From: Selaginella moellendorffii
Lineage: Eukaryota; Plantae; Lycopodiophyta
DNA: 64,000 nucleotides
Assembly: GCF_000143415.4 (NCBI RefSeq)
Contig: NW_003314262.1
Coordinates: 1,663,960 to 1,727,959, forward strand
Direction: 5' to 3'
Under the pieces are notes generated by a model. That model was given only the letters and a program-made list of their open reading frames with translations, made no database searches and was not told the origin of the DNA. How positions within the stretch are numbered: position 1 is the stretch's first letter; each line of letters begins with the position of its first letter. A program made the translations under genes and the position numbers. Of this stretch, positions 31,334 through 64,000 are shown piece by piece.

Positions 31334-34300
31334 TGTAAGGAATCAACTCCCGGAGGTGTCATAGGCTGTCGCGAATGTGACTTTGGGTATCGAAAGTTAC
31401 CTGTCGACCAGTCCTTACGGACACTCTTACCTTACTGCCACGATGGCAGGAGGTCGGTATTGCTGGACCCTTTATTGGCCCCTCTTGTTCAAGTGTTAGT
31501 AAATTGGACTTAGCATCTGTACTTGGCCGGATGAGCATAAGGACGGAATTCCTAAGTGTTTATTTGGCCAAGCATACTTGGCCCGGCTTTTTAGTTCTCT
31601 TTTGCTCTGTCTTGCACTGGCTTGACAAGAACCCTCGCGTATTGAGATTGGTCCCTCAATATCGCTGGATGATAGCATACCGTGTTTGCCAAACACCCTC
31701 GCTATCATGCCCTTTGTGTTAGTCTCAATTCGTCCCAAATGCTATTTATGGAAAGTGTCCAGATTTGCTCATTTGGCATATTTACAGAATGTAGAGATCG
31801 GCTTGAACACAATGGTGTTCGTCTTGTGTCCAAATTCGCAATCTAAGGACATTCCATATTTAGTAAGTTTCGAGCTTGTCCCAGAGACTAACTTCTAATA
31901 CTAAGGGAGGCTTGGGGTGAAAGCCCAAAGCGTGTGTTCCTCAAGGGGGGGGGGGCTGTGGGGGGTTCCAAATGTATAGTAGGGATAGTGGGTAGGTCGG
32001 GCATGGCCGACCAACCTGAGGTATAGTTTAGCTCCCGCTTGCGTGCTTGTCCTTGTTGCGGGTAGGGCATATCACACTTTTGTAAGCTAGGTGACTCCCA
32101 GAGCAGCAGGGGTGGCTGACACCGTTGGTCATTTCCTTGTCGGCGACAGCCGGAAGGTGTCTGAGCTGGTAGCGCATCCGCGTTAAACAAAGAGGTTCCC
32201 CCTAACTCATTTAAGTTGGTGCATTTCTCACATAGTGTGAGTACCATGAACTTTTTATAGAGTTGTTTCCTTGGCGGTATTCTAGACTGGAGTATGCATC
32301 GACGAGGACGTCGATCTTCCCAAGGGGGGGAGAGTGTCGCGAATGTGACTTTGGGTATCGAAAGTTACCTGTCGACCAGTCCTTATGGACACTCTTACTT
32401 TACTGCCACGATGGCAGGAGGTCGGTATTGCTGGACCCTTTATTGGCCTCTTTTGTTCAAGTGTTAGTAAACTGGACTTAGCATCTGTACTTGGCCGGAT
32501 GAGCATAAGGACGGAATTCCTAAGTGTCTATTTGGCCAAGCATACTTGGCCCGGCTTTTTAGTTCTCTTTTGCTCTGTCTTGCACTGGCTTGACAAGAAC
32601 CCTCGCGTATTGAGATTGGTCCCTCAATATCGCTGGATGATAGCTTACCGTGTCTGCCAAACACCCTCGCTATCATGCCCTTTGTGTTAGTCTCAATTTG
32701 TCCTAAATGCTATTTATGGAAAGTGTCCAGATTTGCTCATTTGGCATATCTACGGATTGTAGAGATCGGTCTGAACACAATGGTGTTCGTCTTGTGTCCA
32801 AATTCGCAATCTAAGGACATTCCATATTTAGTAAGTTTCGAGCTTGTCCCAGAGACTAACTTCTAATACTAAGGGAGGCTTGGGATGAAAGCCCAAAGCG
32901 TGTGTTCCTCAAGGGGGGGGGGGCTGTGGGGGGTTCCAAATGTATAGTAGGGATAGTGGGTAGGTCGGGCATGGCCGACCAACCTGAGGTATAGTTTAGC
33001 TCCCGCTTGCGTGCTTGTCCTTGTTCTGCGTCCGGCTTGGGTCTAAGCCCAAGTTCCATTCCATGCTAGCTGGTGGAGTACCCATGTCCTCGCGTTAGGC
33101 CACCGGTATGCCGAAATAGCGCGAGACTCCGTTTGGCTCCGTTTTGCGTGCTGGTCCTGGTATTGGGATGCTGGTTGCTCTAGGACTGTTCCAAGTCGCT
33201 CCGGGCCCATGTCCCTTCGCTCCTTGGGCTGTATGCTCGGGAGTTGCTCCGTGGTCCGGTTCCATCACTCCTTGGCGTCACGCTTGCGAGTTTGGCACCG
33301 TTCCTTCGTTCAGTGGCCCAAGGCCCTGAACCTCGGGTTCCTATGGACACGTGGCATGGACACGTGGTATGTGACACATGGCATCTGTCACGTGGCACAA
33401 AGAGGGTTTAGGTTCCGCTTCGTGGTGTTATCCTATGGTAAATCACCATAGGATAAAGGGTCAAAACCACGTGCGCTACATTTGGTATCAGAGGATGAGT
33501 CTCGGCGAGAACTATCCAATGAGATTGGGCAACTAGTCTCGTTGCATACGCAGAGATGAAAACGATGATCCGAGTGGGTACACGTTTTGGTGCAAAGATT
33601 TCACATTGGTTCCTTGGGATAGGTTTTGGTTACCGTTTTGTATCGTATTATATGAGCTTGCTCTTGGGCTCATAAGAAGGATTGAGTTGTTCCAGTAGCA
33701 CGAGTTTGCGCTTGGGCTCATGAGTGAGGCACATTAGCAACTCAAGATTGCACTTTGAGTTGGCAGGATTAATGATAGCCTATCGGTGGTTCCATGAGTT
33801 GTTCCATGTACCATAGGTGCAAATAAACTTTCCCTAGGTTTGTTATGAGTGGCAAATAGGCTGGTCCGTAGCTGTTTAGCACGGCACTAGTGGATCCTTC
33901 CTAGGCATGATTATAATTGGATCAATCAAGACTGTAGGGATTAATTTATTGGTTCAAGTAATCATTGCCGTGCTCTCTTATAAACTTTTCTTGGATTGAA
34001 CTGAAGGCAGTGCGAAAGCAAGCTTGAGGTTTAGTCAAGATGAGGCCGGAAAGAGAGTCGTCAGGGACGAAGGATCAAATACGTAAATTATTTTCTCTTC
34101 TTGGAGAGATGATCTACAACGAGGTGTTAACTCATTGCTTGGGTTCACATCATGCAATCAAGAGTCCCTATCTTGATGCATGTTGGAGATGGTGGTCTTA
34201 CAATGGTGAGTTGTGGGATGGATAGCGGTGAAACGTTATACCATTTTGTCTAGGCTTGCTATGGAAGACTGGGGTTGCAATGCTCAATTCTTTTCCGGGG

Positions 34301-37300: not shown

Positions 37301-40300
37301 TCATGATGGTTAGTTGTTCTCTTTAATAGCTTTTGGCTTTTCGCAATACCACATGTTCTTTGTGGTTTGCTCTGGATTGGTCTTTTGGGTTTGAGACATC
37401 AATAGGATGTTGCTAACACTTGCTTAGGCAACTTGAGTTCCTTAGTGTTGTTGGCTGGGATCTATTCAGATTGACTAGTGTAATGGTTAATATGAACAAG
37501 CGTTTGTTTGCTTTGCAACATTCATTTTGTTCTGTTGATTATTGCTCGAGTTAGTTCTCATAGATTAGGATGTTATTTCCTTTGGGTGATACATTCGCGA
37601 GCATTGTGCTTGTTAGTCAATAATACTTTGTGTTCTTTGAGTTGTGTTTTGTGAGTTGTTTGGCATGCTATCTGCCATTTTCGGTAGTTCAGTTTCATCA
37701 TTGAGTTTACTTGATGATATACTTGCTATTGAATTTTGTTGGATGGTGATTCCTATGTTTACCACTTATGATGATCTTGGTGGTTCCTCTCTACTATAAT
37801 ACTAGTTTATCGGATGATAACTTACTTGGAATACTTTTGTGTTCTAAAATAAGATTTATTCACTGATAATTCCGACTCTAAGATATCATTGTCTATGACT
37901 TTGATATTTTCCATCTATTGATCTTTGAATTTGGGCCAGTATAGGCAGACTGGCTTCGGCACTTCGTGTGCATGTTGAAATCTCTAGTCATGGGGTAGCT
38001 ACTGTCGACTGGTCACATAACCCGCCTCTCTGTCGATGTTCTTTATTCCGTTGAAAGGGCGTGACTGTGTAAACAACTCTAACTGCCTGTTTACAGTAGT
38101 CTATCTAAACCTTACCGACGGGTTTGGTTTCTTTGCTTAGGAGGGTTGGGGCCTCTGGCTTCTCTCTCTATGTCCTTGCGGGTAGGGCATATCACACTTT
38201 TGTAAGCTAGGTGACTCCCAGAGCAGCAGGGGTGGCTGACACCGTTGGTCATTTCCTTGTCGGCGACAGCCGGAAGGTGTCTGAGCTGGTAGCGCATCCG
38301 CGTTAAACAAAGAGGTTCCCCCTAACTCATTTAAGTTGGTGCATTTCTCACATAGTGTGAGTACCATGAACTTTTTATAGAGTTGTTTCCTTGGCGGTAT
38401 TCTAGACTGGAGTATGCATCGACGAGGACGTCGATCTTCCCAAGGGGGGGAGAGTGTCGCGAATGTGACTTTGGGTATCGAAAGTTACCTGTCGACCAGT
38501 CCTTATGGACACTCTTACTTTACTGCCACGATGGCAGGAGGTCGGTATTGCTGGACCCTTTATTGGCCTCTTTTGTTCAAGTGTTAGTAAACTGGACTTA
38601 GCATCTGTACTTGGCCGGATGAGCATAAGGACGGAATTCCTAAGTGTCTATTTGGCCAAGCATACTTGGCCCGGCTTTTTAGTTCTCTTTTGCTCTGTCT
38701 TGCACTGGCTTGACAAGAACCCTCGCGTATTGAGATTGGTCCCTCAATATCGCTGGATGATAGCTTACCGTGTCTGCCAAACACCCTCGCTATCATGCCC
38801 TTTGTGTTAGTCTCAATTTGTCCTAAATGCTATTTATGGAAAGTGTCCAGATTTGCTCATTTGGCATATCTACGGATTGTAGAGATCGGTCTGAACACAA
38901 TGGTGTTCGTCTTGTGTCCAAATTCGCAATCTAAGGACATTCCATATTTAGTAAGTTTCGAGCTTGTCCCAGAGACTAACTTCTAATACTAAGGGAGGCT
39001 TGGGATGAAAGCCCAAAGCGTGTGTTCCTCAAGGGGGGGGGGGCTGTGGGGGGTTCCAAATGTATAGTAGGGATAGTGGGTAGGTCGGGCATGGCCGACC
39101 AACCTGAGGTATAGTTTAGCTCCCGCTTGCGTGCTTGTCCTTGTTCTGCGTCCGGCTTGGGTCTAAGCCCAAGTTCCATTCCATGCTAGCTGGTGGAGTA
39201 CCCATGTCCTCGCGTTAGGCCACCGGTATGCCGAAATAGCGCCAGACTCCGTTTGGCTCCGTTTTGCGTGCTGGTCCTAGCATTGGGATGCTGGTTGCTC
39301 TAAGACTGTTCCAAGTCGCTCCGGGCCCCTGTCCCTTCGCTTCTTGGGCTGTATGCTCGGGAGTTGCTCCGTGGTCCGGTTCCATCACTCCTTGGCGTCA
39401 CGCTTGCAAGTTTGGCACCGTTCCTTCGTTCAGTGGCCCAAGGCCCTGAACCTCGGGTTCCTATGGACACGTGGCATGGACACGTGGTATGTGACACGTG
39501 GCATCTGTCACGTGGCACAAAGAGGGTTTAGGTTCCGCTTCGTGGTGTTATCCTATGGTAAATCACCATAGGATAAAGGGTCAAAACCACATGTGCTACA
39601 TAGGCTAAAGGATCCCCGAAAACATGACCGAAATGACAAAGAGTTTATCAGATGGGACCGAGTCTAAGATTGAGTCCAAGACCGACTCTGAGACCAAGTT
39701 CGAGATAGAGTCCGGAATCAAGTCCGAGGCTGAATCGGAGACCGAGTTTGAGACCGAGTTTGAGACCGAGTTCGAGACAGAGTCCGAGATCCGAATCGGG
39801 TCTGAGACCAAGTCCGAGGTCAAGTCCAAAGTCGAGTCCGAGATCGGGTCTGAGATCGAGTCCAAGACCGAGTCCGAGACTGAGTCCAAAGTCGGGTCCG
39901 ACATCAAGTCCGAAATCGGGTCCGAGACCGAGTCCGAATACTAATACAGGTGAAGGGGTGAAAGCCCAAAGTGTGTGTCTCCCGGGGGGGCGGGGGGTTC
40001 CAAAAGTATAGTAGGGATAGTGATGTCTACGAATTAGTCTTGAAGGAACTCTCCAGTGGTGCTTCCAAACTGACTTGAGGTTGAAACTGGGGTCGAGGGG
40101 CCTTGGGTGGGAATGAGCATGGACTTGGGTGGTGCCGGAGGGGCCACCCCAGGAAGTGCTCAAGAGTAGCTCCCACTCCTGAAACGGAAACCGATTGCGG
40201 TGTTCCTGGCTCATGTGAAGTGGTGCCCCACTTGAGTACCTTGTGGCTCATTAGTCCTCGCCCTTCCTAGGGGCTTAAGCCTTTCCTTCAGGATGGAAGT

Positions 40301-40681
40301 GGGCCACGGTGTTTTGCCCCAGCATCCCAAAGCAAGTGTTGCACCCAAGACTTGGGATTTATGATCAAGTCTTGTGGTACCAAGGGATGTTAGGAACCTG
40401 ATGGGTTGGTGTGTTTGGCTGCTTGTGCCTGCGGGGAGTGTAGCTGAACCTTAAGTCCAGTTTAACCCAGGGAGGGGGATTGGAAGAGATTTAGGAATCC
40501 GTGGATGGATGGCTAACACTCCGTTGCTCGTGTAGTGAGTAGCTAAAACTAAATAGGACCAAGTAGGAGCTGGTACCATAGGCAGGAACTTTGGCAAGGG
40601 AACTTAGCAAAAGCCAAGGCAGTGTTGGATGGATAGATGAGGTAAGTTGGCAAATTGGAAAGGAAAAATTTGTGGCTTACA
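31334..40681 (+). mobile_element. Family C solo LTR (31334-31366 plus 39606-40681), split by element B
   Basis: Begins tgtaagga and ends tttgtggcttaca like the LTR at 57330-58485. No PBS follows. Flanks AAGGG/AAAGG are a one-mismatch TSD. Confidence 0.85.
31367..39600 (+). mobile_element. Family B non-autonomous (LARD-like) LTR element: partial LTR 31367-32055, LTRs 32335-33480 and 38455-39600, ~5-kb non-coding interior
   Basis: TGTCGC...CTACA termini. Perfect TSD TAGGC (31362-31366 / 39601-39605). PBS tggtatcagag at ~33483. PPT aagggggggagag precedes 32335 and 38455. No interior ORF over ~80 aa. Confidence 0.92.
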
Positions 40682-43600
40682 AAAGGTTTCCTCAAAGAGT
40701 TGAGGATGTGATCCAGATGAGCGTTTGACACAGCAAACGGGCTAATGTAATTGTGGTAAAAAACTATAGTTGGGATCACGGGAAAGATGCAGACTCCAAA
40801 ACAATAAAGGAGTCACAAGATTACCCTCATATAGTGGAGGTTGGTGCTCATAAATTTGAGATCAGAATTGATGACTGTGGGAGGTCAAATACGGAAGAGG
40901 ACACAAGTCCTTGAAATGGTAGCCGGGGCTACTTTTAATAAATGCTAGAACAAACCCAAGGAGTTGGGGGTGTGCTCGGAGGATGAGTTGGTATTCTCAT
41001 CACAAGGACAGATAGTTATAAGGGGCAAAGGTTGCTGCTAGAGAACAAAATCAAGTGTTAGAGTAACACTTGCAAAGATGGTCCTTGTGAGTAGGACATA
41101 AATACAAGGAGTTGTATTCCAGTGTGCTAGCACCTCAAGATAGGTCGTCGAATTAGCAAAGTCCAAAAAGCTGGATAACTCCAATCGAGTCAAGAAATAA
41201 TCCCAAGGGATTGATAGAAGCATTTGGACTGAGATGTATAGTGCCCCACAAAGGATAGGGAGGATCTTAAGATCCAAGTATGGAAATAGTGGGTATTTCG
41301 TTGGTGGCAGAATGTGCTATGCTAAAGTTGTGGGAAAGAGTTTCCCAGAAGAACATAACTTTGGCACAAAGTTGTGCATGAACTCTATGGTGCAGTGCTA
41401 ATGGATAGTTGGCATAAGAGACAGCTGTATTGATCTTGGCAAAAGACCTAGACACAAGTAAAAGGTGTCATAAAAGTAGGCTTGTGGAGCCGATGGTGTA
41501 GAGACACTAAATGTGCCAAGGTGTATTGCCTTGAGGTCAAGTTAACGGGTTTATAAGAACCCCTTCCAAAGGAATCCCAATGGAAATGGGAATTGCATAG
41601 CTTAAGCTGGAAGGCATGTGGTTAGAGTGTGGTGATCCAGATAATGATGGAAGTGTGGAAGCACTAGCAATGAATTGTAGGACTTGACAACTATGAAACA
41701 ACTAAGCAAAAGGTGCAAAATAATTGGTTAAACTAGTAGAAGGTGACTACCTAAGACTTCTTATTGGCATAAAGAAGTTAGATATACCCTTATGAGGGAT
41801 AAATTGCTTATGTTGCGAGATAATAAGTCAATGTCGTAAAGGGAATGCTCATTGCCAAAGAGGCTATCATTGGGACACCCAAGCACTCTAGAACACCAGG
41901 AGGTGGTGTTTGGGGCAATGGATAATGCCCAAGGGATAAAGTCCTTAGCAAATGATGGATAGGAGGTGCTATCCAAATGTCCAAGGTTGCGGAGACAGGA
42001 GAAGTCTATCTACCCAAATTGAACAAAGCCAAAAAGAGATTTTGGCAAGGCTAGTGATGGGCATATAAAGGCCCATAAGTAGCAACAATGACCCCAATGT
42101 GTGGGATTACAAGGTGAGCAAACCCGGATTGAGGAACCACTCCCTAGGCTGTCGGGTAGGTTCATCCCTATGAATACTTGCCAAAGCATGGTAGAAAGTG
42201 CAAAGCTATTTTCCTAGTATGGATGAGAATGACCGAAGGAAATGTATGAGGCCAAAAGGCAAGTAGAAAAGGATAGACCCGAACTATAGGAATCGAAGGG
42301 CATAACCAAAGGTGGTTATGTAAGTTGGGAGTGGAGAATCAAGTGGGTGCTCAAGCATGTTGTCACTAGCGACTATGATGCCATAGAGAGTCTAAAGCAT
42401 GGAATTGTCTATGTTAGACCATGTTAGGTGAAAGGAGAGGCCTTAGCAAGCTAAAGGACAAAGTTCCTTCAAAAGGTTCCCAAAGACAATTCTAAGTAGC
42501 TTGATACCTAGAAAGCCAAGTGTAAATGGTTCATAGAATGCAAAATCAAAGTGGTGCAGTATAAGCATGGTCTTAAAACTTGGCATGAGGTGAGGCTATT
42601 AAGGTTGGGGAAGTAGTTCCCGAGTGTTCAAAGAGAAAGCTTTGAACGAAAGTCAATGGTTAAGGACTTTCACGCTTATGCATGAACTATGTTACGGTGG
42701 CCGGATGACTTGCTAAGTGAGATTGGCATAGTTGAAGGTGCTAACTTAAAAAAGGGTGGCCTATGGGGCCAAGCATGGAGAAGTCCATGCATGATCATAG
42801 ACATGTCAAGTGAGAGGACTTGGCAATGCAGAGGAACTAGGTTCCTAAGCTGTGATTTGTAGCGCGTTTTAAGTCTAAGTTGGTGCATCGGCGTGAGGAA
42901 TTGCACCAGGCATCTTGGGTGATGCCGTCCGTAAATGCATATACGGAGGTTGGGTTCGAGTCCCGACCCTCTAGTGCTTGGGTTCGAGTCCCAAATCACT
43001 AAGGCGTGGTGATGGTTTGGAATATGAGGACACTTATTTTTCGGTGGTCATGGACTCTTAGTAAGGAGACTAGCTTGGGCACACTACCAAGTGGGGAATG
43101 CTCCGAAGTCGTGATACACGGTTAGATTGATTAATGTGAAAACTCGGCATATCTAACTTGAACACTTTGGTGCAAGTGGCACCAAGGATGTGGTGAATGA
43201 GATGGGGACACCCAGTCTCAGTTGCTATGGACCATTGGCTGGAAGGGCTGGCTTGGGTGCACCACCAAGTGTGGGGGATGCTTCCGGGGTCATGGTGAAC
43301 AACTTAAAAGTCTAGAAGACTTAATGCCTATTGGCAAACCTGTTAAGATGCCAAGGTTGGATCACTAAGTGATCTTATGGCTAAAACAAGGATAACGTCC
43401 TTGTGGGGTTAGGAAATAAAGTTCCTAATTCAAAGCATTGATTTGAACTATTGATGATGGTGTGGTTTGGGCAAAGGGACTAAGTGAGAAGAACACCTAA
43501 GGGAAATGAGTTGTGTCAAAGCGATAGCATAATAAGTCTGAAAAAAGTAGTCTCTATAGGAGACCCATAGGAGGGTCACAAAGTTGGGCCGTGGATAAAG

Positions 43601-49393: not shown

Positions 49394-52300
49394 TGTAAGT
49401 GACTAATTTTTCCATTCTACTTTAGTCACTTAACCACACCTCCGACCACTTGGAGGAGTCTCATTCACAACCTCCATAAGCCCAACTCAGGACTTGGGGC
49501 TTGCTTGCCCCGAGAATGGCATCCATGCCACTCAACCTTAGCACTTGGTCCAAGTGCTCCACGTGTCCGATCCCATGATCGACACCCCAAGGTATCACCG
49601 ACGTACCGGCCCGTTACGCTAAGGCCATGCCCATTTACCTTGGTCACACTGGTGGTCCAACACCACTTGCATCACCGTCTTGGCCCTCCAAGACTAGGCA
49701 AACCATCCGTGAGTGGTCATCTCAGATCCACTCCTTAGCATCCTTAGGATGCCCACCGACAAGGGGAATAGCCTTCCCCAATATCCCTCTGTCAGTCCCC
49801 ACTAAGTCCCTTTCTGCCCCTGGCCGTGTTTGCCAACACTGCCACTGGATCGAGACCCACAGGCCCGACCACTAAGTCCCACAGTCCTCTGGGACTTCCT
49901 CACCACACGACTGTGTCCTTGGTCACTACCCCAGAGGACTGCTCCTCTTCCTTTCCACAGTCTGGGCCTTTGGGACGACATTTCGGAACACCGTGGCCTT
50001 ACGCGAGCCACCTGGGTACTCTCCTCGCCTTCTGCCCTTGGGTGCTCTAGCCATGGGCTTAGAGCGGGTTCCGTTGAGCCACACCAGGTATCCAAGTAGG
50101 TAGTGCCACCCACACTTGGACTGGGAGCATCGGCCAGTCGATCTCCCGGGGGAACTAGAGCCGGCTCTTGAACACTTCACCAAGCTACCCCGCTTGTCGG
50201 TCTGTGTTCACTCTAGTCTTGGACTTCCCAGTGGGCAGCTCATCACCCAACACTGGGTCTGGCCTTCCTGGGCCAAACTGGCCTTTCCTGGCCAAACTGG
50301 CTCCACTGCAGTCCTCCCCCTACTATACTTTTGGAGCTCACCAAACCCCCCAGGGTCTGGGAGACGAACGCTTTGGGCTTTCACCCTCTCAGGCTCCGGA
50401 CTCGGACTCGGACTCGGACTCGGACTCGGACTCGGACTCGGATTCAGACTCGGACTCGGTCTCGGCCTCGGTCTCGGTCTCGGCCTCGGCCTCGGTCTCG
50501 GCCTCAGTCTCGGTCTCGGTCCCGGTCTCGGTCTCGGTCTCGGTCCCGGTCTCGGTCCCGGTCTCGGTCTCGACTTCGGACTCCATCTCGGACTCCATCT
50601 CGGACTCCATCTCGGACTCCATCTCGGGTCCATCTCGGACTCCATCTCGGACTCCATTTCGGGTCCATCTCGGGTCCACCTCGGACTCCATCTCGGACTC
50701 CATCTCGGACTCCATCTCGGGTCCATCTCGGACTCCACCTCGGACTCCAACTCGGGTCCATCTCGGGTCCACCTCAGACTCCACTTCGGACTCCATCTCG
50801 GGTCCATCTCGGGTCCACCTCGGACTCCACTTCGGACTCCATCTCGGACTCCATCTCGGGTCCATCTCGGACTCCACTTCGGACTTCAACTCGGGTCCAT
50901 CTCGGACTCCACTTCGGACTCCAACTCGGGTCCATCTCGGACTCCACTTCGGACTCCAACTCGAGTCCATCTCGGACACTCCCCCGTGTCATGTGTTGGT
51001 CCTTTTGGGTCCCTTTCTGGAGCCTCGCTTTTTGCTCGCTTCGTGCTCGTTCCTCGAGCCCTTCTTTGGGAGTTCCACTCCCGCTCTTGACTTTTCAAGT
51101 CGGAGCTTTTGGTCCAAACGTGTTACGCTCGTTTGGCTCTCGCTTCAGCCACTACCACGTGGCACCCTTTCCGGCTCCACTTTGGGGCCTAGGGATTTTG
51201 TGTCTCACAACTCCACCACCCATAGACTAAGTTCGATGTCCTCATCGAACGGTAAACCCTTTCATAAAGTAACACCCACACGTGTTACCTTTTCCATCCT
51301 TGGCACCTAGCCAATCTTTGTCTATGGTTTGACACCAAAGGCTCACCATGCCTTGTCCATCCTTTAAGGAGCGTAGTCTCTCCAACTTAGAGACTGATTG
51401 GACCACATGTAATGGTTCTCTCCTTTTATTGGTTTAGTTCTCGCTAAACCTCTTAGAGACCCTTCTCTAAGTCAATCCCACTACTCCTTCTCGAGTAGTC
51501 TTAATTTCCATCGATATAACCTCTGCACTTTGGAACTTTGAATTTTGACTCCTTGGAGTCAATTTCCTAGGTGTCTCTGACACCTTGCTTTGCACCTTTT
51601 GTGCAACTCCACTTCCCATCCTAGGAAGTTCTCTACTCGAGGGCACCATCATCCTCTCTTCTATTTCGTGCCAAAGTTCCAGTTATCATACTTTGTGCTA
51701 GGGCTGTTCATGGCCCTATCATTTGGCTACCTTACCGCTCCCTCCCTTGGAGCTTCCACTTTCGCCAAATCGGAGCAATTCGGAATCCATCCTTGGAAAC
51801 ACACTTCCTTTCCCGCAATTTGTTAGCGTCCAACACATTAGTGTTCCTCGCCTAACTTTGTCACTTGGATTCCTTCCCAGGGATTCCACGGCCCTATCTT
51901 GGCCACTCATCTTTTGCTCCTATCCGTTGATTGTTGCACCGAGCAACATCGAATCTCTACCTCCCTCCTTGAGGTATTCTTTTGATTCCTTAGCAAAGGC
52001 TCTGCTTTGCCAAGACTAGGGTGTTCACCCCTAGTAAGTCTCTTTTAGCATCTTCTGCTGTGGGCTCTATCCTCGGCCCAACTTTGTGACCCTCTCATGG
52101 GTCTCTTTAGAGACTACTTTCCTTGGACACACTATGCCATCGCGATGACATAGCTCATTTCCCTAAGGTGCTTTTCCCACTTGGTCACCTTGACCAAGCC
52201 ACACCATCATCAATAGTTCAAATCAACACTTTGAACTAGGAACCTTATTCCTTAACCCAAACAAGGACCTTGTCCTTATTTAGCCACAAGATCACCTAGT

Positions 52301-55300
52301 GATCTCACCTCGGCACCTTAACAGGTTTGCCAATAGGTACTAGGTCTTCCAGACCTTTAACTTGTTAACTACGACCCCGGGGGCATCCCCCACACTTGGC
52401 GGTGCGCCCAAGCCAGCCCTTCCGGCCAAGCGTCCATAGCAACTGAGATTAGGTGTCCCCATCTCACTCACCACGTCCTTGGTGCCACTTGCACCAAAGC
52501 GTTCAAGTTAGATATGCCGAGCTTTCACACTAAGCAATCTAACCGTGCATCACGACTCCGAGGCATCCCTCGCTTGGCGGTGTGCCCAAACCAGTCTCCC
52601 CACTGAGAGTCCATGACCACCGAAATATGAGTGTCCTCATATTCCAAACCATCACCACGCCCTAGTGATTTGGGACTCAAACCCAAGCACTAGAGGGTTG
52701 GGACTCGAACCCAACCTCCGTATATGCATCTACGGACGGCATCACACAAGATGCCTGGCGTGACTCCCCACGCCGGTGCACCAACTTATTTTTAAAGCGC
52801 GCTACAGATCACAGCTTAGGAACCTAGTTCCTCCACACTGCCAAGTCCTCTCACTTGACATGTCTGTGATCATGCATGGACTCCTCCATGCTCGGCCCCA
52901 TGGCCCACTCTTTTTGAAGTTATCACTTTCAACTAGGGTCTTTGTTCCCCCGACGTGCCAATCTCACTTGGCAAGTCCTCCGACCATTGTAACATGGTTC
53001 CTACATAAGCGTGAAAGTCCTTGACCATCGACTTTCGTTCAAAGCCCTCTCTTTGAACACTCGGGAACTACTTCCCTAACCTTGATAACCTTGCCTCATG
53101 GCAAGCTTCAAGACCACGCTTCTGCTGCGCCACTCTGATTTTGCACGTTCCATGAACCATTTACACTTGGCCTTTCTAGGTACTACGCTACCTAGAATTG
53201 TCTTTGGGAACCTTGAAGGAACTCTGTCCCTCAGCTTTTCTAAGGCCTCCCCTTTCGCAAGCTTTATAGTTGCCATATAGTCTAACATGGACAATTCCAT
53301 ATTTTAGACTCTCCATGGCATCACGGTTGCTAGCGGCAACACCCTCGAGCCCCCACTTGATTCTCCACTCCCAGCTGGCATAACCAACCTTGGTTATGCC
53401 CTTTGATTCCTACGGTTCGGTTCTATCCCCTTACTTCTTGCTTTTTGGCTTCACACCTTTCCTTTGGTCATTCTCCTCCAGACCAGGAGGATAGCTTTGC
53501 ACCTTCTATCATGCTTTAGCAAGTATTCTTAGGGATGAACCTACCCAATAGCCTAGGGAGTGGTTCCTCAATCCGGGTATGCTCACCTTATAATCCTACA
53601 CACTGGGATTACATTGTTGCTTATGGGCCTTTACATGCCCATCACTAGCCTTGCCAAAATTCCATTTTTGGCTTTGTCCAACTCGGGTAGACAGTCCTCT
53701 CCTGTCTCCGCAACCTTGGACATTTGGATAGCACCTTCTATCCATCATTCGCTAGGGACTTAGTCCCTTGGGCTTTATCCATTGCCCTCGCGACATCAAA
53801 CACCACCTTCTGGTGTTCTAGAGTGTTCGGGTGTCCCAATGATGGCTTTCTTGACAATGAGTATTTCCTTTTATGACATTGACTTACTATATCGCAACAC
53901 AAGCAACTTATCCCCCGTAAGGGTATATCCAACTTCCCTATGCTATTAAGAAGTCTTGGGTAGCTACCTTTTACCTGTTTAACCAGTTATTTTGCACCTC
54001 TTGCTTAGTTGCCTCATAGTTGTCAAGTCCTACAACTCATTGCTTGGTGCTTTCGCACCTCCATCATTATCTGGGTCACCACACTCCAACTGCATGCTCT
54101 GCAGCTTAGGCTATGCTATTTCCATTTCCATTGGGATTCCTTTGGCAAAGGGTTCTCATGAACCCACTAACATAGCCTCAAGGTATCACACCTTGGCACA
54201 TTTGGTGTCTCCACACCATCGGCTCCACAAGCCTACCTCTATGATATTTCCCCTTCGTGTCTAAGTCTTTGCTAAGACCAACACCGCTCTTTCTCATGCC
54301 AACCATCCGTTAGCACTGCACCATAAAGGTCACACACAACTTTATGTCAAAGTTGTTTTCTTCTGGGAACACCTTTCCCATAACTTTAGCATGGCATATT
54401 TTGCCATCGATGAGATACCCTCTGTTCTCATCCTTGGATCCTATGATCCCCCCCCATCCTTTGTGGGGTACAACACACCTCAGTCCAAATGCTTCCATCA
54501 GTCCTTTTAGGACCATCTGTTGACTCTACTTGAGTCATCCAGCAGTTTTGGACTTGGTTAATCCACAGACCCGTAAGGTCCTACTTGTGAGGCACTAGCT
54601 CACTGGAATACACTTCTTGCATTCTTGTCTTACTCAAAAGGACTATTTTCACAAGTGTTACTCCGACACTTGATTTTGTTCTCTGGGGGCAACCTTTGCC
54701 CCTTAGGACTACTTGTCCATGTGATGAGAACACCAACTCATCCACTTAATACACCCCCAACTCTTGGGGTTGTTCCAGCATTTATTAGAGGTAGCCCCGG
54801 CTACCTTTTCAAGGACTTGAGTCCTCTTCCGTATTTGACCTCCCACGGTCATTACTTCTGGTCTCACATTCATGAGCACCAACCTCAACTATATGAAGAA
54901 AATCTTATGACTCCTTTATTGCTTTGGAGTCTTTATCTTTCCCGTGATCCCAATTGTAGTTGTTTACCACAACTACATTAGCCAGTTTGCTAAGTCAAAC
55001 GCTCATCTGGATCACATCCTCAACTCTTTGAGGAAAACCATATATTGTTCCCAAGATCCCAAAGTCGTTCCATTATTGGCCCTTTTCTATCCACCACCTC
55101 GTCTACAAGTTCACACATGAACTGTAATGGAGAGCCATGTCTTCCCGACTTGCTACTCCTCAAGGATAGGCCCACTCCTCGGACCTTCCGATGCCAACAC
55201 TAGTGGTGATATACTTGAGCACCAATAAAAGTCAGACTAAGGAACAGCTCCGATACCAAGTTGTAAGCGACTAATTTTTCCATTCTACTTTAGTCACTTA

Positions 55301-56975: not shown

Positions 56976-59744
56976 CATGGATGCCCAATATGTATGAGAG
57001 TTCATGCTATTTGCTCTTATACCACATGTAGTGCACTTTATCTCTCTCCCCTTAAACTAATTAGAAAAGGGGCAATTGCTTGATGTGAGAGCCCTTAGTA
57101 ACTATTTTATCCCTATTTATCCCCCAAGGTTCTAAGGATCCACGGTGACAATATATCAAAATCTCATCCCATGATCACATGCATTACTGTAATTGAGAGG
57201 TAAGGGAAGTTCCTGAGACAAAGAACCAACATCCTACATATGAAGACAATGAGGAGTTAGGGGAGGAAAATGAAAATTAGCTGGAACAGAAAGGGGAATA
57301 TTATACAACTGAATTGACTACGAAATAAGTGTAAGGAACTAACTCGCCGAGGTGTTGTAGGCTAAAAGAGCCCCGAAAGCATAACCAAAATGATAAAGAG
57401 TTCATCGGATGGGACCAAGTCTAAGATCGAGTCCGAGACCGACTCGGAGACCGAGTTCGAGATAGAGTCCAGAATCGAGTCCGAGACCGACTCGGAGACC
57501 GAGTTCGAGACCGAGTTCGAGACAGAGTCCGAGATCCGAAATCAGGTCCGAGACCGAGTCCGAGGTCGAGTCCGAGGTCAGGTCCGAGATCGGGTCTAAG
57601 ATCAAGTCCAAGATCGAGTTCGAGACCAAATCCGAAGTCGGATCCGAGATCAAGTCCGAGATCGAGCCAGAGACTAAGTCCGAGTACTAATACGGGTCAA
57701 GGGGTGAAAGCCCAAAGTGTGCATCTCCCGGGGGGGGGGGGGGGATGTAGGGGGTTCCAAAAGTATAGTAGGGATAGTGAGGTCTAGGAACTAGTTTTGA
57801 AGGAAATCTCTAGTGGGGCTACCAAACTGACTTGAGGTTGGGATTGGGACCAAGGGGCCTTGGGTGGGAGTGAGCATGGACTTGGTTGGTGCTGGAGGGG
57901 CCATCCAAGGAAGTGCTAAAGAGCAGCTCCCACTCCCGAAAGGGAAACCGATTGTAGTGCTCCCGGCTCATGTGGAGTGGTGCCCCACTTGAGTACCATG
58001 CGGCTCATTGGTCCTCGCCCTTCCTAGGGGCTTGGACCTTCCCTTCGGGATGGAAGTCGGGGGGTAGAGGTACCCATACCGAGCCGTTAGGCCACGGTGT
58101 TTCGCCCCGACATCCCGAAGCAAGTGTTGCACCCAAGGCTTGGGATTTAGAGGCCCTGGGTCCCATGATCAAGTCTTGTTGTACCAAATGGTGTTAGGAA
58201 CCTGGAGGCTTGGTGTGCTTGGCTGCTTGTGCCTACGGGGAGTGTAGCCAAACCTTAAATCCAATCTAACCCGGGGAGGGGGATTGGGAGAGATTTGGGA
58301 ATCCATAGATGGATGGCTAACACTCCGTTGCTCGTGCAGTGAGTAGCTGAAACCAAGTAGGACCAAGTAGGAGCTGGTACAATAGGCGAGAACCTTGGCA
58401 AAGGAACTTAGCACAAGCCAAGACAGTGTTGGTCAGATAGACGAGGTAAGCTGGCAAATTAGAAAGGAAAAATTTGTGGCTTACAATTTGGTATCAGAGC
58501 CTTTTCCTCAGTTCTAGCGAAGGATAGAGGCGGATTGCTGGGAGATGGCAAAGGTAGGGCGGAAGCGAACCAAGGCAGAGAAGGACCCTCCTCCAGAGCT
58601 AGAGCCTCTGGTTGAACAAGAGGCTATGGATGAGGAATCCTTGCATAAGGAGGACTCTAGTGAGGAAACTTCCAAACAGGAGTCCGGTGGCGAAGTTCGG
58701 TCGTCCAAGGCTCGATTGGACATGCTAGAAGGACAGTTGGCATAGACCAATGCCCTGTTGGAGACTCTCGTACGCAAGCTAAAGCGTGACGAGAAGCGGA
58801 AGAAAAAGAGAAAGACTGCGGATGCTAGTAGCGCAGAAGGTGCGGACCCTTCGGCAGGGACTGAGGCAGAACCAAACAAGGTCGAATAGACAGAAGTAGA
58901 ATCAGTCCCTCAGGTAGTTCCCAAGTACAAACCAAAGCCCCCACCGGTCTTCAAGGGAGTGAATGACTATAAGGTGGTGGAGGATTGGTTTTACAATATG
59001 GAGGACTACTTTCGAGCGTTGCGATTACCGAGTTCGGAGAAGGTCCCATGTGCAAAACCATACTTGGCAGATAATGCCAAGTCTTGGTGGAGAACGACAG
59101 AGGCCAACGAAGGATCGGTGGCCACTTGGGACATGATGAAGGCGAGGATCCGCGCAATATACGTTCCTCCGAATGCCACTCTGCATCTGAGAGATGAGCT
59201 GAGTAGGCTGAAGCAGATTGGAACCATCCAAGAATATGTGAATGGGTTCATGGCAAAGAGGATACTGGTCACAGACATGGGGGATATGAATACATTCCAT
59301 GCCTTCATATCAGGTTTGCAAACCTAGGCTCGCGGTGAAGTGATGCGGTGGAACCCAACCAACTACAAGGAAGCATTGGATGCGGCCATCAAGGTGCATT
59401 TCAATGATAACCTGCGAAAGGGGAACACGACGGGGTCGGGATCCACATTTAGCAAAGGGGCCAAACCAAGAGGAACGTATAGCAGGGGGAAATTCAAGAA
59501 GAGTTTATCTAAGAATGAGTCCTCGGGGTTTCGGAAAGGCAAATCCAGTGGCCAGCGAGCGAGTACGTGGGGGAGTCAAGTGAAAAGAGACAAACCCACG
59601 GATAAGAAGGTCAAGTCGTATAGCAGCGTGGGAAACAACGTATGCTACAACTGCGGTGAAGTGGGACACTTTTCGAGGGAATGTCCCTTCCCGAAGAAGG
59701 CCAGAGCCAATATGGCCATCAAGTCGGGTGAAGTCCAAACTGAG

Positions 59745-59801
59745 GTATGTGATCCAGTCCTTAACTCAAAGTTACTCATTACACGAACAACTTTGGTAAA
59801 G
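59745..59801 (+). other. Candidate 57-nt in-frame intron between the gag zinc knuckle and the protease
   Basis: gag|GTATGT...ggtaAAG|agt; AT-rich relative to its flanks and host-like in size. Confidence 0.5.
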
Positions 59802-62418
59802 AGTCGTTCGCGACATCTACTAGCCCTCAGAGGGAAGCTCGGAGGTAGCTTTGTTAAGATCCTTATTGACACGGGTGCTTCGGATAATTTTGTGGCTGCA
59901 GATATAGTCCGGCAAGCTAGACTAACGGTGCAGCGGTTAGGCGAACCAAGGACTATAGAGTTTGTTCAAGGTAGCCAAAGCACTGATGAGGTACTTCGAC
60001 AAGCGAGAGTTGAAGTAGGGACATGGAAAGTAGACATGGATTTCACTGTGTTGGACATGGCGGGATTTGACGTGATCTTCGGAATGGATTGGTTTAATCG
60101 GTTCGTGGTAGCCCTGCATGGACAAGGTAGGAACCTTGTGGTACTGGCGAATGCCCAAGGAAGAAGATCTAGGGTGGAGGCCCAGGATCTAAAGGTAGGG
60201 CAAAGCAAGGCCAAAGATTCCTACTTAAACCTGGTGTCCACGAGAGGACAACTCACTAAAGGAACTAAGGCAGCCTTTTTGTGCTTACTCTCGGTGAAGA
60301 GTGACAAAAAGACATGAACAAAAGAAGTACCTTTAGTGATCTAGTGGGTGTTGGACCAATTCCAGGATACCATGCCAGAGGAGCTACTGGCGGGGTTGCC
60401 CTTTGCATGACCGATAGAACATAAGATTGAGCTGGTCAAGGGTGCTGAGGCAATGGTTCATCCCCCCTATCGTTTGAACGAAAAAGAACTCAAGGAGCTT
60501 AAGTGCCAACTAGAGGAGTTGGTGGAGAAAGGGTATGTTAGGTTGAGCAAGTCGCCATAAAGGGTGCCAGTGTTATTTGTGCAAAAGAAAGATGGTTCTA
60601 TGCGCATGTGCATAGACTACTAGTTGCTCAACAAGTGTACAAAGAAAAACAAGTACCCTTTGTCAAGAATTGAGGACCTGTTCGATAGGTTGGGAAAGGC
60701 AAAATACTTCTCAAGGATTGACCTAAGGTCAGGATACTACCAGATCAGGGTAGCCGAGGAAGATGTCGAGAAGACAACCTATCGAACGAGGTATGGGAGC
60801 TTTGAGTTTCTGGTGATGCCCTTCGGGCTATGCAATGCGCCAGCAACATTTTCGGTGCTGATGAACCACATCTTTGTACCCTATCTGGATCACTTCGTAG
60901 TCGTTTATATCGATGACATCTTGATCTATAGCGAGACGCTAGAGGAGCATGCCGAACACTTGGCGAAAGTGTTTGAGAAACTAAGGGAACACAAACTGTA
61001 TGCTAAAGAGAGCAAATGTGACTTTGCTCAACAAGAGGTAAAGTTTCTTGGGCATGTGGTGGGCCAGGACGGGCTCAAGGTGGACCCAGAGAAGGTCCAA
61101 GCGATCCAAGAATGGGAGCGACCATCGAATGTACATGAGTTGAGGGCGTTCTTGGGGCTATGCAACTACTACCGAAAGTTTATTAGACACTATTCGAAAG
61201 TAGCCCTGCCCTTAACGGACCAAACAGAAAAAGAGAAGATGGTATGGACAGCAGAATGCGAGGCAGCATTCGTCCACCTCAAAGGAAAGTTGAGGAAGGC
61301 TCCCATGTTAGCATTACCAGACTTTGGTAAGGACTTTGAGGTAGAAACAGATGCTTCAGACTTTGCGTTAGGCGCAGTTTTGAAGCAAGACAACCATCCA
61401 GTAGCGTTCTTCTTGAAGAAGTTGGACAAGGCTCAATGGAAGTGGCATGCCCATGAGAAGGAATTGTTTGCGGTGGTCAAGGCGCTCAAGGAGTGGCGAC
61501 ACTACCTTGGGAGACACTTCAAGGTTTACGCAGACAATGTGGCAACGAAACACTTCTTGTCACAGCCCGACCTGAGAGGGAAACAAGGTCGGTGGGCCAA
61601 TGCCTTGGCCGAGTTTGATTGTGAAATTCTGTACAAGCCTGGGAAGAGCAACATCATGGCGGATGCGCTAAGTCGAAAAATGAGCTTGAGGTTGGCGATA
61701 TCCAGCGCAACAGCAACCTTCTGAGACGATGTGCGAACAGCATATGAGAACGATGGTCTAGCACAAGAAGTGTTGCTCAGGAATCTAGAGGCACGGGAAG
61801 CTCACCAGAGAGGTGAGCTGCCAACGGAAGAGAAAACGGGTTATGCGGAACGCAACGGACTCATCTATTACAAGCAAACGAGGGTGTATGTTCCAGAAGG
61901 GGAACTAAGGAAGGTAGCCTTAGAAGAGTGTCATGACGGACTTTTTGTGGGACACGGCAGAGTGCCCAAGACGATGGGCTTACTCAAGAGGAAGTACCAT
62001 TGGCTAGATATGGCTAAGGACGTCCAAGACTATGTAAAGACATGTCCAACATGTCAGCAGGTCAAAGCCGTGACTAAGGCTAGTGGGGGCTTGTTGCAAA
62101 GCATCCCAATTCCAGATCGTCCGTGGAAATGTCTTACGATGGACTTCATCATAGGACTTCCCCCAAGTGAGGGGTTTGATGCGATATTCATGGTGGTGGA
62201 CCGATTTTTGAAAATGGCACATTTCATACCCACTACAACGGAAGTGGATGCGGAAGGTGTGGCAAAGCTGTTCTTTGAACAAGTGCTTCCAGTGCGGGGA
62301 AGGCCGGAAGAGATCATCTCAGATCGAGATAAGATCTTCACTAGTAGGTTCTGGAGGACTCTCCTGGAACAGTATCGCACCAAGTTGAAATTCAGCACAA
62401 CCTATCACCCACAGACAG

Positions 62419-62460
62419 GTATGGGTATTAAATCAAGTTTGGTGGCACTAACACTTCTTG
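62419..62460 (+). other. 42-nt intron-like insert in the integrase core; acceptor apparently mutated
   Basis: Splits the conserved YHPQTD(G)QTER motif. Starts GTATGG, contains CACTAAC, ends ttcttg rather than ag. Confidence 0.65.
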
Positions 62461-62878
62461 ACAGACAAACGGAAAGGGTGAATAGGCAGCTGGAGGATTA
62501 TTTGCGATGCTATGTCTCGGGAGACCAGACCGATTGGGTAAGTCATTTGGGACTTGCGGAAATGTGTTATAATAACTCACCACATTCGAGTATCGGGGTG
62601 AGTCCATGGGAAGTCATCAATGAGCGAGCTATTGAAGGTCCTGTGGAACTCGGCGTGGCCGAGTATCATGGAGAGTTACCCGCAGTGGAGGCATTCACAG
62701 TGGAAAGACTCAACATTTGGAATCTAGTGAGGGATTCTTTGGAACGGGCACAACAAAGGCAAACCAAGTACGCAAACCAGAAGTGCCGGGACGTAGAGTT
62801 CCAAGCTGGGGAGAAGGTGTGGCTGAACACCAAGAACCTCAAGCTACCAAGTGGGATCAGCCGAAAGTTGACCCAAAG

Positions 62879-62930
62879 GTAAAAATGCATGTATTCCTGT
62901 AAATGAATTGATCTTGAGTTCCTTAAGCAG
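62879..62930 (+). other. 52-nt GT-AG intron in the integrase C-terminal region
   Basis: caaag|GTAAAA...TTAAGCAG|gttcgcggggccttac. Removal restores KLTQRFAGPY and the frame into the chromodomain. Confidence 0.85.
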
Positions 62931-64000
62931 GTTCGCGGGGCCTTACGAGAATAAGGCTCGAATCGGTAAAGTGGCTTACCGTCTCCGACTTCCTCGAGAG
63001 ATGGGGAAGATGCATCCCATGTTCCACGTGAACTTACTCAAGCCGTATTTTGAGGATCCATTTCGCAAGGACCAAGTAAGACCTTTACCTGAGGTTATCC
63101 AAGGGGAAGAGGAATACGAAGTCGAGGCCATCCTCAATGCGCGCAAGAGCAAGTGACAAGGACGCAAGGTGAGAGAGTTCTATGTGAAGTGGAAAGGATT
63201 TCCACACTGCAAAGCAACATGGGAACTGGAGGAGAACCTAGCGAACGCACGAGATCTAGTGGAGGAATTTTTGCAAGGCAGAACTCTATGTACTTATGCA
63301 AAGTTCAATTAAATGTATCAATTTGAGAAGTTGAGCAATGGCATATGTTGGGACCCAAAGGCGCGCCGAAGGTAAGCTAATTAGCATGGGTTAGGTAGGT
63401 CAACCAGGCATAGGGGACTACGCCCGACTCCCTACGGGGATGTCAAATCCGTAGACGTATTCTGGGTTCAAGTCCCAACCCCCTAGTAAAGCAAGGTTGG
63501 GTTCAAGTCCCAACCCCATACTAGGGCATGGTGAGGTGAGGAGTATAGGGACACCTATATTCCGTTGTCATCGGCTCTTGGCCCGGGAGGCTAACTTAGG
63601 CACACCGCTAAGTGGGGGGATGCCCCCAGAGACATGGTCAACAAGTCGTAGGATAAAAAAGAGACGTTCGATGTGGGCATCGAACTTCTTCTATGGGTGG
63701 TGGAGTTGTAAGGAACCAACTCACCGAGGTGTCATAGGCTAAAAGAGCCCCGAAAGCATGACCAAAATGATAAAGAGTTCATCGGATGGGACCAAGTCTA
63801 AGATCGAGTCCAAGACTGACTCTAAGACCGAGTTCGAGATAGAGTCCGGAATCGAGTCCGAGACCGACTCGGAGACCGAGTTCGAGACAGAGTCTGAGAT
63901 CCAAAATCGGGTCCAAGACCGAGTCTGAGGTCGAGTCTGAGGTCGAGTCCGAGGTCGGGTCCGAGATCGGGTCCGAGATTGAGGCCAAGATTGAGTCCGA

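Follow-up and report, generated by a model that had tools for sequence, protein, structure and literature searches.

Two spliced, apparently unrecognised introns within the integrase of a Selaginella chromovirus family

That an intron disappears in a single round of retrotransposition has been the classic evidence for an RNA intermediate, and standard reporters are built on it (PMC12786077). Plant LTR elements are generally without introns, the exceptions given in the accessible part of a 2025 review being Ogre and EVADE, and the paper on BARE adds Bagy2 env and CRR as further cases (PMC3735527). Ogre, a Ty3/gypsy element of the Tat lineage, keeps an intron in its genomic copies and splices it from a subset of transcripts for the downstream Pol domains; according to the accessible text of the sources, this single intron is located between Gag-PR and RT-RH-IN, within a spacer whose mean length is 274 bp (PMC6317226, PMC4408406). 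The Ty1/copia elements BARE1, EVADE and copia are described as splicing their RNA into a Gag-only message, with the unspliced RNA encoding integrase and the two pools coexisting (PMC3735527, PMC5580714). For BARE it is reported that only the unspliced RNA is packaged and that spliced DNA copies could not be amplified (PMC3735527). Penelope-like elements keep introns after retrotransposition, which the accessible text terms highly unusual among retroelements; they are without LTRs or DDE integrase and move by another mechanism (bioRxiv 10.1101/2021.04.23.441226).

The family nearest to the element studied here is SM1-Galahad, a chromovirus of Selaginella moellendorffii that we place in the Galadriel clade following PMC3350952. 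It is described there as about 7.5 kb long, with LTRs of 1076/1146 bp, a poly-G run of 11-25 bp, a 13-nt tRNA-Met primer-binding site and hundreds of copies. Its main ORF of 3885 bp is without the chromodomain and is followed by two short ORFs, one of 316 bp and a final one of 309 bp that contains the chromodomain; the published reconstruction was made from several copies and the three-piece layout is therefore family-wide. The survey, in its accessible text, gives no intact SM1-Galahad copy, and describes the sister family SM2-Galahad as intact with a single 4731-bp ORF of 1577 aa (PMC3350952). The words 'intron' and 'splic' are absent from the text of that paper (0 matches).

The window, by which we mean the whole stretch of 64,000 nucleotides that was analysed, contains on its forward strand an LTR retrotransposon, interrupted by an insert, that runs from 57330 to past the window end. 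Its 5' LTR (57330..58485, 1156 bp, TG...CA) includes a run of 15 G at 57730-57744 and has 87% identity to the start of the 3' LTR, which LTR comparison places at 63707..64000 and which continues beyond the window end, giving an extrapolated total length of about 7.53 kb. A 13-nt primer-binding site follows at 58489..58501, which we take to be of the tRNA-Met type. The domain order found with Pfam is Gag, zinc knuckle, protease, RT, RNase H, integrase, SH3, chromodomain. Coding exon 1 (58545..62418) holds Gag, zinc knuckle, protease, RT, RNase H, the N-terminus of the integrase and both catalytic Asp residues in one frame. Exon 2 (62465..62878), recognised from homologue and Ty3 integrase (PDB 7q5b) alignments and from silent-biased differences between copies, holds the catalytic Glu and the remaining integrase core. 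Exon 3 (62931..63312) holds a Tf2-like SH3 domain (PF24626) and the C-terminal chromodomain (PF00385, E 1.2e-11). By its LTR, primer-binding site, Gag-PR-RT-RH-IN order and chromodomain the element is a Ty3/gypsy chromovirus. Reading-frame analysis of the window copy found no gag-pol frameshift, Gag through IN lying in one frame without a spacer; this and the chromodomain rule out an Ogre-type identity. The frame of exon 1 is unbroken from 58545 up to the first insert, yet it contains nine in-frame stops in the window copy, and exon 3 contains one, so this copy is dead, as the preliminary description of the locus had held.

The element matches SM1-Galahad, as compared by described features and not by sequence: the two have in common the size class, an LTR of more than 1 kb with poly-G, the 13-nt primer-binding site (for which the published tRNA-Met assignment agrees with ours), the three-ORF layout and the Selaginella host. 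The ORFs measure 3884 nt here from the ATG to a TAA in the first insert, 318 nt ending in the second insert and 309 nt; with the one extra base of other copies, described below, 3884 nt become 3885 nt, exactly the published main ORF. Whereas SM1-Galahad was published as separate ORFs (PMC3350952), the two breaks in the window element are spliced introns. In the homologue searches there was no homologue closer than about 46% over at least half of the query and no Selaginella among the named matches. These homologue proteins come from ORF calling and so cannot show introns in other families. A metagenome scan gave 11 loci with short C-terminal matches only, none informative on intron positions.

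The first insert occupies 62419-62460. The preliminary description had noted there 14 in-frame residues between HPQT and D-R-QTERVN, proposed an intron whose acceptor AG had mutated to TG, and expected that retention would probably inactivate the DDE site. Re-reading the sequence confirms the insert itself: it is 42 nt long, starts GTATGG, has CACTAAC at 62446-62452 and CTTCTT, and ends TG, while the next AG, also correctly noted, stands at 62463-62464 and would make it 46 nt. The insert is positioned four codons upstream of the catalytic Glu and stretches the D-to-E spacing to 49, from 35 without it. Among 233 integrase homologues the motif pattern was matched in 98, and 97 of these have 4 residues where the window copy has 18, the single exception being a degenerate mis-match. 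In the alignment to Ty3 integrase (PDB 7q5b) a 14-residue gap falls exactly at this position. Judged against these homologues, the insert is not a chance feature.

Other copies have a different form of it. In X1 and X2, two DNA-type runs from one sample, an additional base follows 62420 (5 and 7 contigs), and an insertion of four bases follows 62459 or 62463 (11 and 4; 9 and 12 contigs); these rows, of 4 to 12 contigs and about 2-6% of depth each, are not a copy count, and their low share probably comes from short contigs clipped at indels. Loose contig ends were also seen in X1/X2 at the intron 1 donor. The sole X4 contig that spans the insert (depth 68) carries both indels and the G at 62463 that had been predicted for other copies, and the spanning contig of X17 carries both indels as well. 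Intron 1 (62419..62464, phase 1, in the Asp codon of HPQT-D-GQTE) is thus 46 nt from GT to AG in the window copy and 47 nt, GT-AG, in the other copies seen (X1, X2, X4, X17). The window copy lost one base at the donor and four at the acceptor, which left the in-frame 42 nt and the TG end. The 4-nt loss sits in a GACA repeat that spans the acceptor and is assignable to neither the intron nor exon 2. The acceptor was therefore shortened and not, as first proposed, mutated from AG to TG. In the 47-nt form the extra donor base brings the TAA at 62429-62431 into frame at a point four codons ahead of the catalytic Glu, and makes the ORF exactly 3885 nt. Retention in the family consequently ends the ORF instead of adding 14 residues, and an integrase model with those residues would depict a decay product. 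The branch-like CACTAAC precedes the AG of intron 1 by 13 nt, and a loose-end class comprising 22 X1 contigs has a different sequence at this place.

A second insert, to which the title of the preliminary description alludes, was located at 62879..62930. It is 52 nt long, GT..AG, phase 2, and lies inside KLTQ-R-FAGPY; when it is retained, a TAA at 62880-62882 is in frame. Its A+T content is 67%, which no 52-nt window of exon 1 reaches. In a piecewise comparison with seven homologues the exon 1 and exon 2 pieces lie 2 residues apart, as expected, in all seven, and the exon 2 and exon 3 pieces lie the expected 1 apart in four and 0, 4 and 5 apart in the others.

We looked for exact joints in X1, X2 and X4 and in X15, X17 and X18; the last three, from three studies, are RNA-type by a guessed label and make up half of the six runs so labelled, none of the runs with this stretch being recorded as RNA. 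One 2500-nt contig of X15 skips both introns (short sides 118 and 119 nt). In X18, from another study, one contig skips intron 1 and a separate contig skips intron 2 (short sides 118 and 24 nt). The joints are 62417>62460 for intron 1 and 62876>62929 for intron 2 in both X15 and X18, so that each intron has its joint in two of the three RNA-type (guessed) runs; none is listed in the three DNA-type or unlabelled runs. Spliced support amounts to three contigs with depths of 2-11, at 1-6 contigs per RNA-type run. Retained forms are present too: X17 keeps intron 1 in its 47-nt form and its contig breaks within intron 2, and X18 has two further pieces entering intron 2. No joint is seen in X4 (51 contigs of unrecorded library type), where intron 1 is present in the dominant contig and intron 2 is retained as well. 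Raw RNA reads, sampled at about 12% of each of the runs X22 and X23, numbered 5 and 3, too few to inform, with no joint among those listed. Twelve exon letters occur in both X15 and X17 but not in the majority of X4, and close relatives therefore occur both spliced (X15) and unspliced (X17). Both inserts are real GT-AG introns, with the ends and the exact removal expected of U2-type spliceosomal introns, skipped in likely-RNA contigs and kept in DNA-type contigs. This bears out the original reading of the first insert as an intron, for which junction reads had been named as the check, and it lends support to the expectation that active integrase would come from spliced RNA, given that the family form of intron 1 holds a stop before the catalytic Glu.

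We hypothesize, with a probability of roughly 0.65, that this is a family with two short GT-AG introns in its integrase, in which the unspliced RNA is the packaged and reverse-transcribed genome and the doubly spliced RNA is the only source of full integrase. The unspliced RNA would encode a 1295-aa Gag-PR-RT-RH protein with a truncated integrase that ends before the catalytic Glu. The doubly spliced RNA would give a protein of about 1557 aa with the DDE core, SH3 and chromodomain, a computed length near the 1577 aa described for single-ORF SM2-Galahad (PMC3350952). In an element without a gag-pol frameshift, incomplete splicing of very short introns would be a way to limit integrase and may set its dose. 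New copies keep both introns, so the unspliced RNA would be the main template for reverse transcription; the spliced RNA would be kept out of it, most likely as a separate translated pool by analogy with BARE. No packaging-like signal was seen in the introns: neither their folding nor their pairing with the LTR, the leader or the 3' region went beyond the shuffle range. The introns also have no purine tract of at least 12 nt, and a crude motif scan of the LTR did not show a BARE-like pair of TATA boxes. As a separate observation, retaining intron 2 alone would give a protein with an intact DDE core and without SH3/chromodomain, which we could speculate to be an untargeted integrase form.

Of the known systems Ogre appears closest in logic, with a genomic intron whose splicing is needed for downstream domains. 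Unlike Ogre, the window element is a chromovirus with two introns of 47-52 nt that split integrase codons, and only the integrase and chromodomain depend on splicing. From what is described for BARE1, EVADE and copia, two coexisting RNA pools are alike, but the logic is reversed, since here it is the spliced RNA that gives integrase.

The introns were probably gained in the Selaginella chromovirus lineage rather than anciently retained, because SM2-Galahad has a single ORF and the homologues are uninterrupted, with the reservation that ORF-derived proteins are biased to intron-less elements. A broader reading, to which we give slightly better than even odds, is that an autonomous LTR element gained two integrase introns and multiplied to hundreds of copies without losing them, splicing acting as an integrase switch alongside a route that bars spliced RNA from reverse transcription.

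One explanation for the persistence of the introns without any RNA routing is that they are real and the integrase needs splicing, but that splicing is rare where the element moves, the few intron-less copies being purged or not multiplying. It is conceivable in view of the retained forms in RNA-type contigs, namely intron 1 in X17 and the intron 2 pieces in X17 and X18, which have depths of 15.9 and 3.4 against 2.0 for the spliced X18 contig; the introns are also shorter than the host introns of the window that were identified by eye, three in number (about 61, 127 and 471 nt). Against this, the sole X15 contig is doubly spliced, and splicing is thus not rare in at least one sample. The DNA-type contigs (18,573 in X1 and 24,044 in X2) bear on the number of intron-less copies: neither intron-less joint is among the joints listed, which are 15 of 54, a fraction that leaves room for rare splicing. 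The depth of the listed joints in X1 (134-345) is comparable to that of the single long contigs listed (113-142), compared with 0.36-1.5 million for the summed depth. This makes a multi-copy intron-less subfamily unlikely, and none is seen among the joints listed; single intron-less DNA copies are compatible with these data. We consider plain rarity of splicing an unlikely account and, on the BARE precedent, would rank separate RNA pools above it.

The junction contigs might alternatively be intron-less genomic retrocopies of spliced RNA, transcribed or sequenced as DNA, and not a record of present splicing, which we regard as improbable. The RNA label is a guess, and X15 and X17 differ at four listed exon sites and so are not the same locus. 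An RNA-type run, however, gave only 1-6 contigs against about 20,000 per DNA-type run, and both forms of intron 2 occur in X18. Even retrocopies of this kind would prove the inserts to be spliceable introns.

It could also be argued that the inserts killed the integrase and that the family is non-autonomous, borrowing integrase from, for example, SM2-Galahad, with splicing incidental. The published survey, in its accessible text without an intact SM1-Galahad and with an intact single-ORF SM2-Galahad (PMC3350952), would agree with this, but introns were not considered in that survey. We addressed this question by looking at silent sites in 37 exonic rows among 40 shown of 68, which are unpolarised and may reflect few branches. 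Among differences shared by X15/X17 and absent or polymorphic in X4, 16 of 17 are silent overall, and downstream of intron 1 the count is 13 of 14, where random transitions would be silent in 33.5% of cases (p = 6.5e-6). Among letters found in the window copy alone, 7 of 13 are silent downstream of intron 1 (Fisher p = 0.033). This bias in the spliced frame, which both joints restore, indicates that the exons behind the stop were maintained as protein with the introns carried along; it suggests that the spliced integrase was under selection and argues against a trans-complemented dead integrase, a reading that we find very improbable. All five differences seen in one or two runs are non-silent and include a stop in X17/X18, so some transcribed copies have decayed.

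A 42-nt intron with an AG to TG change, or a 14-residue insertion tolerated in the protein, is hardly credible: the window copy does read in frame through the 42 nt, and if the exon side were compared without gaps the difference would pass for two point changes, but the gapped contigs in X1, X2, X4 and X17 show the 1+4 extra bases, the published 3885-bp ORF fits the 47-nt form, and 97 of the 98 motif-matching homologues are without the insert.

If the reading of separate spliced and unspliced pools is true, the family would offer a natural case that breaks the rule of LTR elements losing their introns within a single cycle. High copy number together with two small introns retained in a catalytic domain would mean that such an element is able to separate its genome RNA from an mRNA differing by about 100 nt, and the choice of RNA for packaging would become testable by sequencing alone. 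It would further be a candidate case of intron gain in a retroelement and a candidate way to control integrase apart from Gag and RT. Where annotation takes introns to be absent, an active family can be mistaken for a broken one, which was apparently the case for SM1-Galahad. In a full-text literature search, with Repbase Reports, subscription journals and the SM1-Galahad supplement outside its scope, we met with no description of introns in SM1-Galahad or within the integrase of any LTR retrotransposon, and five small REXdb files gave no match. The family-wide intron pair, spliced out of the integrase of this known family, was apparently unrecognised before.

Positions 62884-62903 of intron 2 share 18 of 20 bases with 2704-2723, the 3' end of a predicted 61-nt intron in a host FRIGIDA-like gene; none of 200 shuffles scored as high, for a match spotted by eye first and tested post hoc. 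The likeness may be chance or a hint of the origin of intron 2. One loose-end variant class of X1/X2 contigs differs in this region. The short direct repeats found at the ends of the introns (5 and 4 nt) largely follow from the splice consensus, and we do not take them as evidence of insertion.

Elsewhere in the window, 26450-57000 is a nest of related repeats on both strands with no Pfam match in the ORFs scanned (for example, 50779-55036 against 44888-40687, 83% over 4.3 kb). The nest carries 12-bp tandem arrays like that in the LTR of the element, and its members are possibly LARD-like non-autonomous elements. An LTR-like stretch at 39601-40682 has 83% identity to the 5' LTR and is followed by a non-coding repeat with no primer-binding site, as in a solo LTR or a non-autonomous relative. 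Abutting it at 39601 is a 1426-bp direct repeat (32056-33481 and 38176-39601, 99.3% identity, 6120 bp apart), and the pair may be the LTRs of a very young element without detected coding domains. Positions 1-22000 are a gene-dense host region with FRIGIDA-like, PPR, C2H2 zinc finger, kinase-like, Rab GTPase, F-box/LRR and thioesterase genes, of which the FRIGIDA-like gene has 88-91% identity to Selaginella moellendorffii proteins.
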